DNA of 54,654 bases from Sarea resinae (Eukaryota). The notes under the pieces were generated by a model, which did no database searches, was not told where the DNA came from, and was given only the letters and a program-made list of their open reading frames with translations. The stretch is taken from positions 62,001 through 116,654 of the forward strand of contig JAPEUD010000073.1 in NCBI GenBank assembly GCA_026026165.1. Reading direction: 5' to 3'. Shown here one piece after another: positions 30,022 to 33,000 of this stretch (the first letter of the stretch is position 1; each line of letters starts with the position of its first letter). A program made the position numbers and the translations under genes.

Positions 30022-33000
30022 ATGGGGCACATTATCACTGTTGCTACTTGCAACTTGAATCAGTGGGCGTAGGTTCTATTTAGGGTTGATTATTCTTGGC
30101 AGTGCTAACTCCAAACATTCAGACTCGACTTCACGGGAAATCAGCAACGCATTTTCGAGAGCATTCGTCAAAGCAAGCTCAAGGGAGCCAAACTTAGAGT
30201 GTGAGTTTGCGTTCTTCTGATCTAGAGCTCTTTGAGACAATCAGTCATAACAACGAGAATTATACGGGCAAAGTTTCAGTAGAATCTTATGCCACATTCT
30301 GATAGAAGCTGTTCCTTAGATGTACCTCACTATTGACTTTATTGCCTTCATTTGCCATGAGTAGAAATACTGACTCCGCCTATAGAGGACCGGAACTGGA
30401 AGTATGTGGCTATGGCTGCCTGTGAGTACATTTCAACAGATCATAAAGCTTTCGCACGGCATTTTGACAGGCATGTAAGGACTAACGACTTGTAGGGACC
30501 ACTTTCTCGAGGGCGACACCGACATGCACTGTTGGGAGAGTCTGAGCGAGATCATCCAACACCCAGACTGTCTAAATATTCTGCTGGATATCGGCATGCC
30601 TGTCAAGCACAAGAATGTGAGGTATAATTGCCGGCTTATCTGCTATAATAAGGAGATCCTCCTTATTCGGCCGAAGCTGTCCTTAGCGAACGATGGAAAC
30701 TACTACGAGATGTAAGTCTTACTGGGAGCCCCTGCCTCCAAGGTGCAATGGGATTCCGAGTTTGTTTGGTTCTGTTCGCGGTTCTACATCGGCACTCGCA
30801 TGATAGAGAAGAGATCCTGGCAGAACGTGAACCTCTCTACTTCTGCTTCGGCGACTCAAAGTTTTCGTTCCCGTCAGACCTGACTTACTGACAAAACAAT
30901 TCCAGGAGATATTTCACACCTTGGAAAGGGGTCCGCGTGGTAGAGAAGTTCTACTTGCCGCGGTCAGTTAGCAAGATCATAGGTCAGAAGGAAGTTCCAA
31001 TCGGAGACGCACTCATTAGCACTTTGGACACCTGCCTCGGTGCTGAGACCTGTGAAGAATTGTTTGTGAGTTCCAGTCTGCAGTCACAGGTACCGACAAC
31101 AGATATGCTGACTTCTAGTCAGACCCCAAATGCTCCTCACATTGACATGGGCTTAGACGGTTGTGAAGTTTTCACCAATAGCTCTGGGAGCCATCATGAG
31201 CTCAGAAAACTGCACACCAGAGTCGAATTAATTATGTCTGCCACATTGAAGAGTGGCGGGATCTACATGTGAGGACGTTTTCTGACACGGAATCACGAGA
31301 CTGTCATGCTGACTCCTGTTAGATATGCAAATCAGCAGGGATGTGACGGCGACCGCCTCTACTACGACGGATGTAGTATGATTATCGCAAATGGGAAGAT
31401 TGTGGGGTATGTGTCTCGTTCTCTTAACTTCTGATGAAACCTATTTTGAGACACATACAAAATGAGCTCTGCTGACTCGGAGATGTTGAAGGCAAGGTAG
31501 TCAATTCTCTCTGAACGATGTCGAGGTGATCACGGCAAGTATAGACCTTGAGGACGTCAGGAGCTACCGCGAACAGAAAAGGTATGAAAGTCCTCGGTCC
31601 TTCAGCTTTTGAGAAGCCTACTCTGAGACAGAATCTCTGCTGATAACGAGATGTTGAAGTCGAGCAATGCAGGCCCGCGATCAGCCAAAGTACGAACGTA
31701 TTGAAGTGAACATGTCACTCTCCAGTGAAGGCGATATGATCGATCTGCAACTCCAACCCACAATGCCCAAGGAGGTTGTGTATCACCTGCCGGAAGAGGA
31801 GATCGCATATGGTCCAGCTTGCTACCTATGGGACTATTTGCGACGAGCCAAGCAAGCAGGCTTCTTTCTTCCCCTTAGCGGCGGCATTGATTCGTGTGCG
31901 ACTGCACTCATCGTCCATTCTTTGACTCGCCTAGTCTTCGAAGCAATACAATCAGGAAAGAATCCACAAGTGCTCGTAGATCTCCATCGGATTTCTGGGG
32001 AAGAAGAAGGCAGCACCTGGCGGCCTAAGACCCCGCAAGAAATCTGCAATAGGATATTTTGTACGGCCTACATGGCTATGGAAAAGCACTCTTCCTCCCT
32101 CACTCGGTGTGCAACTTCTATTCTTTCAATGTTTGAACAAAAAATACTTCCTAGAACACTCCTGAAAGAGATTATACTGACTTCAAAATTCGAAGGCAAC
32201 GAGCTGCAGACTTGGCTGAAGCCATAGGTGCCAACCACCTAGACTTCGCGATCGATTCTGTGTACGACGCGCAGGTTCAGCTACTGCGTAAGTCCCATTA
32301 TTTAAGACACGAAGCTAGAGTCCCTAGAGATTTGCAGTCTCGGCCCCATGGGAATACATCCAGGTTCTTCTATATTACTCCGAGACATCTAATCTCTCAC
32401 CTCTACTCTTTCCTTTCTATTGAGGTTGCAAAACTGACTCCGATGGATAGAATCAACAACTGGTTACGAAGCGAAATTCAAGGTGTACGGTGGCACAAAA
32501 GCCTCAAACCTTGCACTTCAGAACATCCAGGCTCGTCTTCGAATGGTCAACGCATACACCCTCGCTCAGCTCCTCCCTCAGATTCGTGGCCGGCGTGAAG
32601 GGGCTCCGGGGTCCTTGCTCGTTCTTGGAAGCGCTAATGTGGATGAGTACGCAACCTCTTGCTCTCTCACTCTCTGATGAATCGTGCTTCCGAATCGGAT
32701 CATGAAAGGATATTTGCTGACTTCGAGATTTTCAAGATCTCTACGCGGTTACTTGACCAAATACGGTAAGAATTCCCTAACTTATTTTGCCCTATCTTGT
32801 AAAATCAAGAGAGATACCCGTTCCCACTCACCTCCACTCCGTTCATCACCCAAAAGAAACATGCTGACTCTACAATTGGTTCGTAGACTGTAGTTCTGCC
32901 GATATAAATCCAATCGGTGGCATCTCTAAGACAGATCTGAAGCGCTTTATTCGCTGGGCCTCACAGCCAGATACCCTTGGTCTCGCGCTTCTTCAGGACT

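Follow-up and report, generated by a model that had tools for sequence, protein, structure and literature searches.

The DNA analysed here is a stretch of 54,654 nucleotides (nt) of Sarea resinae (assembly GCA_026026165.1, contig JAPEUD010000073.1, positions 62,001 to 116,654 of the forward strand), which we call the window and in whose own numbering its features are given. It carries QNS1, the gene encoding glutamine-dependent NAD+ synthetase, on the plus strand at 30022..33871, and this report concerns the resemblance between four introns of that gene, namely introns 7, 8, 9 and 11 (I7, I8, I9 and I11). The exon-intron model of QNS1 was built by reading all three frames together with the splice signals. 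It starts with an ATG at 30022, ends with a stop codon whose last base is 33871, and comprises 16 exons and 15 introns of 51-214 nt; the coding sequence (CDS) has 724 codons (2175 nt), the longest exon measures 447 nt and the intron density is 6.9 per kb of CDS. A database search with exon 9 as the query returned protein P0001 (661 residues, 100% identical), together with about 1800 fungal QNS1 relatives. P0001, labelled at its source as a hypothetical protein from a metagenome-assembled Sarea resinae genome, contains the Pfam domains PF00795 and PF02540, and our model is the same protein from residue 64 through the C-terminal end. P0001 begins at residue 64 of our model and leaves out the first three short exons (30022-30500), which encode an N-terminus conserved in all orthologues. 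Six named fungal orthologues are colinear with QNS1 and gap-free across the junctions of I7, I8, I9 and I11.

The four introns all lie on the plus strand, in phase 2, and end with an AAG acceptor; they interrupt the QNS1 coding sequence at codons 256, 286, 435 and 531. I7 (31407..31491) is 85 nt long and has a GTATGT donor and a GCTGAC branch site; I8 (31582..31659) has 78 nt and a GCTGAT branch site; I9 (32107..32195) has 89 nt and an ACTGAC branch site; I11 (32647..32736) has 90 nt and a GCTGAC branch site. Thus, in the sense strand of each intron a GTATG, GTGTG or GTACG donor is combined with a CTGAY branch site and AAG, and the 3' splice site follows the branch-site A at 16, 16, 15 and 16 nt in I7, I8, I9 and I11, respectively, against 10-19 nt in the other QNS1 introns. 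The first-pass annotation of this DNA had given the coordinates, lengths, phase and acceptors of the four introns exactly, in agreement with P0001 and with the orthologue alignments. Since the P0001 annotation and the colinearity of orthologues agree with each other, the four pairs of junctions, the AAG acceptors and the phase can be regarded as supported. The first-pass annotation had also presented phase 2 and the AAG acceptor as traits shared by the group, and these two fared differently. AAG is specific, as it is found in 4/4 family introns and in 0/11 of the other QNS1 introns (6 CAG, 5 TAG; Fisher p=0.0007). Phase 2 carries no group information, because 10 of the 15 QNS1 introns have it.

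We then compared the intron sequences beyond their splice signals. The null for pairwise scores was a signal-preserving shuffle, in which the hexamers of donor and branch site were fixed along with the acceptor, and dinucleotides were kept in between. For searches, the whole window on both strands served as an empirical null; a set of introns predicted ab initio in other genes was too noisy (5/26 candidates end with GAG). Under stringent local scoring, the Smith-Waterman score of the I7-I8 pair was 38, while the other 104 pairs of QNS1 introns did not exceed 27, and this score was reached in 0/5000 signal-preserving shuffles (z=7.3). The same scoring gave 38/5000 for I9-I11, 311/5000 for I8-I11 and 623/5000 for I7-I11. 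When scoring suited to diverged sequences was used, in three schemes, I7-I8, I9-I11 and I7-I11 ranked within the top four of the 105 pairs and I8-I11 fifth to seventh, with z of 3.8-5.5 for I9-I11. The I7-I9 and I8-I9 pairs stayed at chance level in the shuffle tests under both kinds of scoring. Two pairs from outside the family, I2-I14 and I5-I14, also reached z of about 4 under permissive scoring. As possible related pairs, I2-I14, I12-I13 and I5-I14 were considered and dismissed, as they amounted to 1-2.5 bits only.

Profile searches of the window separated the family from its background. A profile built from I7 and I8 recovered I11 over its full length (E=1.2e-5, 21.3 bits), a score reached in 0/3000 shuffles, with a shuffle maximum of 17.4. 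In a leave-one-out series the omitted I7 (E=4.2e-6), I8 (E=1.5e-4) or I11 (E=2.7e-7) was the top new match in the whole window and the next match had E of at least 1.6; I9 was not recovered in this way. Single-sequence nhmmer searches of the window led from I7 to I8 (E=3.6e-4) and to I11 (E=0.007), and from I9 to I11 as its best match (E=0.4), a value short of significance taken singly. With shuffled targets, the scores were reached in 0/3000 cases for I7 to I8, 1/3000 for I7 to I11, 0/3000 for I9 to I11 and 10/3000 for I11 to I9. In the four-way alignment, I7 and I8 are 76% identical (57 of 75 columns, with 13 gap columns), I11 is 62% identical to I7 and 60% to I8, I9 and I11 share 54%, and I9 is 49-50% identical to I7 and I8. 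The last 12 nt are common to I7 and I8, and this 3' end is all that blastn-short reported for the pair. A GAGAT motif stands at the matching place in I7, I8 and I11.

On these sequence comparisons, I7, I8 and I11 can be taken as mutually homologous beyond reasonable doubt. I9 is probably an older, more diverged member of the family, linked to it through I11 alone, and I11 in turn links the I7/I8 pair to I9. The first-pass annotation had proposed four mutually homologous introns, with a comparison against shuffled or random introns under masked splice signals as a way to check it; the proposal holds for I7, I8 and I11, while I9 is a probable member by way of I11, and under stringent scoring I7-I8 alone stands well above chance among the pairs of I7, I8 and I11.

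The similarity extends over the whole of each intron and stops there. The four-way alignment spans donor to acceptor, from the first to the last intron base, and the 60-nt exon flanks were unrelated in 12/12 comparisons, the lowest value being 21/500 shuffles; the earlier observation that the flanking exons are unrelated is therefore borne out. The QNS1 protein has no internal repeat. Because the flanks are unrelated and the protein is colinear with its orthologues and free of internal repeats, exon or segmental duplication is excluded. The 90-nt exon 8 (31492..31581, plus strand), which separates I7 from I8, is conserved coding sequence, with 30 residues that align gap-free to all orthologues shown. 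An origin of the introns from exon sequence found no support in nhmmer and blastn searches of each intron against the window, where only family introns appeared at E of 0.01 or below and exon stretches had E of at least 3.5; an intron made by tandem duplication of an exon segment was excluded on the same values. By eye, the four junctions have neither a target-site duplication nor a terminal inverted repeat in common. In I8 alone, the exon and the intron end with the same 3 nt (AAG), and the inverted repeat of I7 is internal, not terminal.

The first-pass annotation had also asked, by way of BLASTN, whether copies are spread over the genome or confined to QNS1. The window, to which this search was applied, holds none beyond QNS1: blastn-short of the introns gave nothing longer than 13 nt elsewhere, and the four-intron profile found no further copies on either strand, its best non-member match having E=1.2. 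Among the contigs of sequencing run X1 (402,563 records), which carries the whole locus and is probably its source, four at 80% likeness or more fell on the gene and none was a second intron copy; at this threshold the only match to QNS1 other than its own locus was a foreign exon fragment. Low-depth identical fragments in runs X2 and X3 indicate that the same organism was present there, and nothing more. A 35-nt I9-like piece with 5 differences, found in another organism in run X2, was read as chance.

In size and folding the family introns are mostly ordinary. Their lengths of 78-90 nt lie within the 51-214 nt of the other 11 QNS1 introns. Fold stability, expressed as z against 300 dinucleotide shuffles, was -2.83 for I7, +0.91 for I8, +0.70 for I9 and +1.23 for I11, so that three of the four (I8, I9 and I11) have no stable fold and the family has no fold in common. 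The fold of I7 contains a 12-bp hairpin (31407..31458, plus strand), in which the 5' splice site at 31407-31418 pairs with 31447-31458; its minimum free energy is -22.3 kcal/mol, 2/300 shuffles were equally stable, and blastn also reported an 11-nt inverted match. The hairpin is specific to I7, and the aligned part of I8 does not have it. No Rfam family matched any of the introns. A content of small nucleolar RNA was considered, as I7 and I11 hold UGAUGA and CUGA, and was rejected, since no intron has an Rfam match and the span is too short.

The presence or absence of introns at the same positions was assessed in 80 orthologous loci from metagenome contigs, which are 44-68% identical to QNS1 in the best segment and mostly have 0-7 introns. 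The I7 position is intron-free in 79/80 loci, and L070 has an intron 5 nt away. At the I8 position 78/80 loci are intron-free; L065 has small indels only, and the intron of L079 lies in a stretch that cannot be aligned. At the I9 position 71/80 loci are intron-free, 6/80 do not cover it, and L067 and L068 are ambiguous; L040, a distant and intron-rich orthologue, has a 48-nt phase-2 intron with an AAG acceptor (about 5309-5356) 3 nt downstream. The exact I11 position is used in 0/80 loci, and ten loci have an intron within 12 codons. When all 15 QNS1 positions were tested for exact coincidence, only I3 (with L050) and I8 (with L059) were scored as shared, and the I8-L059 case was rejected as a mis-anchoring artefact, since no intron would fit into the L059 match. 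The first-pass annotation had wished to compare sister species; the present sample, in which no orthologue is more than 68% identical in its best segment, gave no exact match for I7, I8, I9 or I11. Within this sample, the four introns are lineage-specific, as are almost all other QNS1 introns.

Several observations were made in the orthologues along the way. Codons 526-541 of QNS1 correspond to a cluster of differing intron positions in ten loci, and in L016 (about 5490-5630) one has to assume a 4-nt micro-exon, with an intron on either side, to recover the reading frame. Two related fungi have a 76-nt phase-2 AAG intron (L001 5502-5577 and L002 1488-1563) 12 nt upstream of the I11 position; the L001 intron aligns over its full length to the family profile with E=0.53, and the score was reached in 26/3000 shuffles for L001 and 139/3000 for L002. 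A 148-nt QNS1 intron near codon 44 is similar in its 3' part (L025 2110-2141, L026 3894-3925) to the corresponding part of the family (E=0.0057; 4/3000 shuffles for L025). As candidate family members in other species, these four, of which those in L001 and L002 are suggestive, were rejected: they are not significant once the hundreds of introns searched are counted.

QNS1 also differs from its surroundings in the window. Uninterrupted open reading frames (ORFs) supported by Pfam in the neighbouring genes measure 539 amino acids (aa) for eIF3a, 395 and 296 aa for an AAA ATPase, 464 and 306 aa for an EPL1/PHD protein, 380 and 216 aa for a phosphodiesterase and 320 aa for a hydrolase; additional ORFs of 629, 366 and 359 aa without a Pfam match lie in the same gene regions. 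Exons of the neighbouring genes reach about 1.9 kb, against 447 nt for the longest exon of QNS1. The branch sites of QNS1 (30069-33758) are TGCTGAY in 8/15 and CTGAY in 12/15 introns, and those of the few well-defined neighbouring introns are mostly CTAAY, although this background is small and noisy. With phase-2 shares of 25-33% taken as the expectation, the probability of at least 10 phase-2 introns among 15, as in QNS1, is 0.0008-0.008. Between two long ORFs of the AAA ATPase, a single GT-AG join was found; it would remove a candidate intron of 378 nt (15424-15801, minus strand) with the ending TGCTGAT...AAG, so AAG acceptors and branch sites of this type may occur outside QNS1. At 42001-54654 the GC content drops sharply from 49% to 30%, with TpA/ApT of 1.72 and (CpA+TpG)/(ApC+GpT) of 0.61; this composition is the signature of repeats degraded by repeat-induced point mutation.

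The best-supported reading of these data is an old duplication of introns within one gene, without duplication of exons; an introner-like family was not demonstrated. More specifically, we propose that I7, I8, I11 and probably I9 are paralogous spliceosomal introns, arisen as one whole intron was copied repeatedly inside QNS1, likeliest by spliceosome-mediated transposition, and we give this full account about an even chance of being correct. The copied unit would begin with the GT donor, include a (T)GCTGAY branch site located 15-16 nt before the 3' splice site, and end with the AAG acceptor. The excised intron would reverse-splice into an incompletely spliced transcript of its own gene or into its DNA, reverse transcription and a short recombination tract would then fix the new copy, and the copies would later have diverged to 76-50% identity. 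We favour transposition mediated by the spliceosome because the copied unit is precisely what the spliceosome excises, and because all copies fall within 1.3 kb of a single gene, the two closest being separated by 90 nt. The AAG acceptor and the branch-site spacing are kept together with the copies, and the most similar pair, I7-I8, is also the adjacent one. The first-pass annotation had named two routes, an introner-like family and copying of an intron within its own gene, the latter for example by reverse splicing plus cDNA recombination. Copying within the gene fits all tests run; the introner-like route fits less well, given the absence of a stable fold in three of the four introns, their ordinary lengths and the lack of near-identical copies in the window and, at 80% likeness or more, in run X1. 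That reverse splicing plus cDNA recombination was the path taken may be suggested, and we infer likewise that the source was intragenic (as opposed to a dispersed family), that the route was mediated by RNA and that the four positions are gains.

A number of points weigh against this proposal. If fully spliced cDNA had recombined with the gene, neighbouring introns would have been erased, yet I7 and I8 coexist 90 nt apart among 15 introns, so that a special version of the model is needed: from this spacing, the target would have been pre-mRNA or DNA, or else the conversion tract would have been very short. The four introns are not datable as younger than the rest, because the nearest orthologue is 68% identical and at most one of the 15 positions is shared with any locus. 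The nearby introns in L070, in L040 and in the ten loci around I11, at distances of 1-12 nt from the QNS1 positions, suggest that the sites may be older or recurrently used. I9, at chance against I7 and I8, is also missed by a profile of I7, I8 and I11. The test at 80% likeness would miss a dispersed family whose copies are only 50-76% identical, like those in QNS1, and I7 and I8 themselves were not reported by it as fitting two places. Finally, the junctions have their basis in protein colinearity and an independent annotation.

The alternatives differ in how much of the evidence they accommodate. It is rather unlikely, in our opinion, that the four introns go back to several independent insertions into QNS1 by a genome-wide introner-like family and are now degenerate copies of it. 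Introner-like elements (ILEs) are described in PMC3609843 as decaying fast into ordinary introns, which speaks for this possibility, together with the unusual intron density of QNS1 (15 introns in a 2175-nt CDS, among neighbours with long uninterrupted ORFs), the stable hairpin of I7 and the TGCTGAY branch site in 8 of its 15 introns. However, no copy was seen in other genes of the window, run X1 yielded no similar contig at a likeness of 80% or higher, the lengths are those of ordinary introns and three of the four members have no stable fold; moreover, three or four insertions into one gene, with the closest pair adjacent, are improbable unless the copy number was very high. Local copying at the DNA level, in which a nearby intron served as filler or template in the repair of a double-strand break or a local DNA element hopped without an RNA intermediate, we judge distinctly unlikely. 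It would agree with the short range of the clustering (90 nt to 1.3 kb) and would escape the problem of deleted neighbouring introns that cDNA recombination brings, and intron gain by break repair is an accepted proposed mechanism (PMC3443670). What it fails to explain is why the homology is bounded exactly by the splice sites, for which DNA copying gives no reason, and the junctions show by eye no consistent target-site duplication or terminal inverted repeat beyond the AAG of I8.

Function could also keep or produce such similarity without duplication, through an intronic regulatory element, gene conversion or convergence. The identical final 12 nt of I7 and I8 and the GAGAT at a matching place in three of the introns would be in keeping with this, as would the weak profile likeness to QNS1 introns of other species described above. 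Nevertheless, those cross-species matches fade under the signal-keeping null given the hundreds of introns searched, the introns have neither an Rfam match nor a shared fold, and a colinear similarity over the full length is not a product of convergence; we regard a functional origin as highly improbable. Least credible of all is chance resemblance due to splice signals and pyrimidine-rich composition, which for the set as a whole is extremely improbable. It can appeal to the chance-level scores of I7-I9 and I8-I9, to the frequency with which shuffles matched I7-I11 and I8-I11 under stringent scoring and to the z of about 4 of the two non-family pairs, but it does not account for the I7-I8 score that no shuffle reached, for the margin by which I11 surpassed the shuffle maximum in the I7+I8 profile search, or for the leave-one-out series, in which the omitted I7, I8 and I11 stood 5-7 orders of magnitude ahead in E. 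Chance is refuted for I7, I8 and I11, and for I9 it is somewhat unlikely.

Copying within the gene places the QNS1 introns close to a class already described in fungi. Collemare, van der Burgt and de Wit (2013, PMC3609843) report same-gene duplications (SGDs) of fungal introns, 82 in number and drawn from 24 species; in roughly half of these the exons are not duplicated, which the paper reads as possible transposition within one transcript. Like those introns, the QNS1 introns resemble ordinary introns in length and folding energy, and they match the subtype without duplicated exon flanks. SGDs have their similar introns within one gene only, and for QNS1 neither the window nor, at 80% likeness or more, run X1 gave a copy elsewhere. 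They differ in that the SGDs of that text are near-identical by BlastN, while the best QNS1 pair is 76% identical and blastn-short sees only 12 nt of it, and in that QNS1 holds three to four members in one gene. Given this low identity, the QNS1 set is much older than the SGD pairs, and its detection took Smith-Waterman scoring or a profile search. According to the same paper, the ILEs of Dothideomycetes and other fungi are spread over unrelated genes by the hundreds; they are roughly double the length of regular introns, and their predicted folds are stable. The QNS1 introns agree with this description as whole introns of the canonical spliceosomal type that lie in the sense strand, are multiplied as one unit and are expected to decay to ordinary introns; unlike ILEs as characterised there, they have no copy found outside the gene (in the window, and in run X1 at 80% or more), are of ordinary length and are stably folded in I7 only.

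The model of intron transposition, reviewed in PMC3443670, includes reverse splicing of an intron into its own mRNA; such transposition is undemonstrated in vivo, and that review, of 2012, lists 14 unambiguous events. A reverse-splicing proposal for Oikopleura is summarised in PMC4122922. As in the transposition described there, each QNS1 copy is homologous to another intron, splice signals included, and has unrelated exon flanks. In contrast to simple recombination with fully spliced cDNA, I7 and I8 coexist 90 nt apart. An RNA intermediate in the QNS1 case would be hypothetical. The transposon-type Introners known from algae and other eukaryotes belong to the DNA transposons; they come with target-site duplications, in many cases end in terminal inverted repeats, and are dispersed in many copies. 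The four introns resemble them as repeated intron sequences that create introns on insertion, and depart from them in the lack of a consistent duplication or terminal repeat, by eye, at the four junctions.

A broader view of the locus would make QNS1 a private hotspot of intron birth, in which, over a long time, a single lineage of introns has inserted itself again and again into the gene that carries it and older, unrecognisable copies form much of the remaining introns. It cites the 15 introns, the 10 in phase 2, the 8 with TGCTGAY, at most one position found in orthologues and the intron-poor neighbours; we consider it improbable. If this is true, the gene would document, in nature, a series of transpositions that the spliceosome mediated within one gene.

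The origin of new spliceosomal introns is still disputed, and very few cases of transposition are convincing (the 14 in the 2012 review, PMC3443670). The QNS1 locus is a clean addition to them, in that a single-copy, conserved housekeeping gene holds three to four whole-intron paralogues whose homology ends at the splice sites. The set can be assigned to a known but rare class, which it extends by a new and unusually rich example. Copying of introns within a gene may have been counted too rarely, as such sets can be far older than the near-identical pairs found by BlastN. If relatives or populations of this fungus are polymorphic for these introns, the locus would permit a direct test of the copying mechanism.

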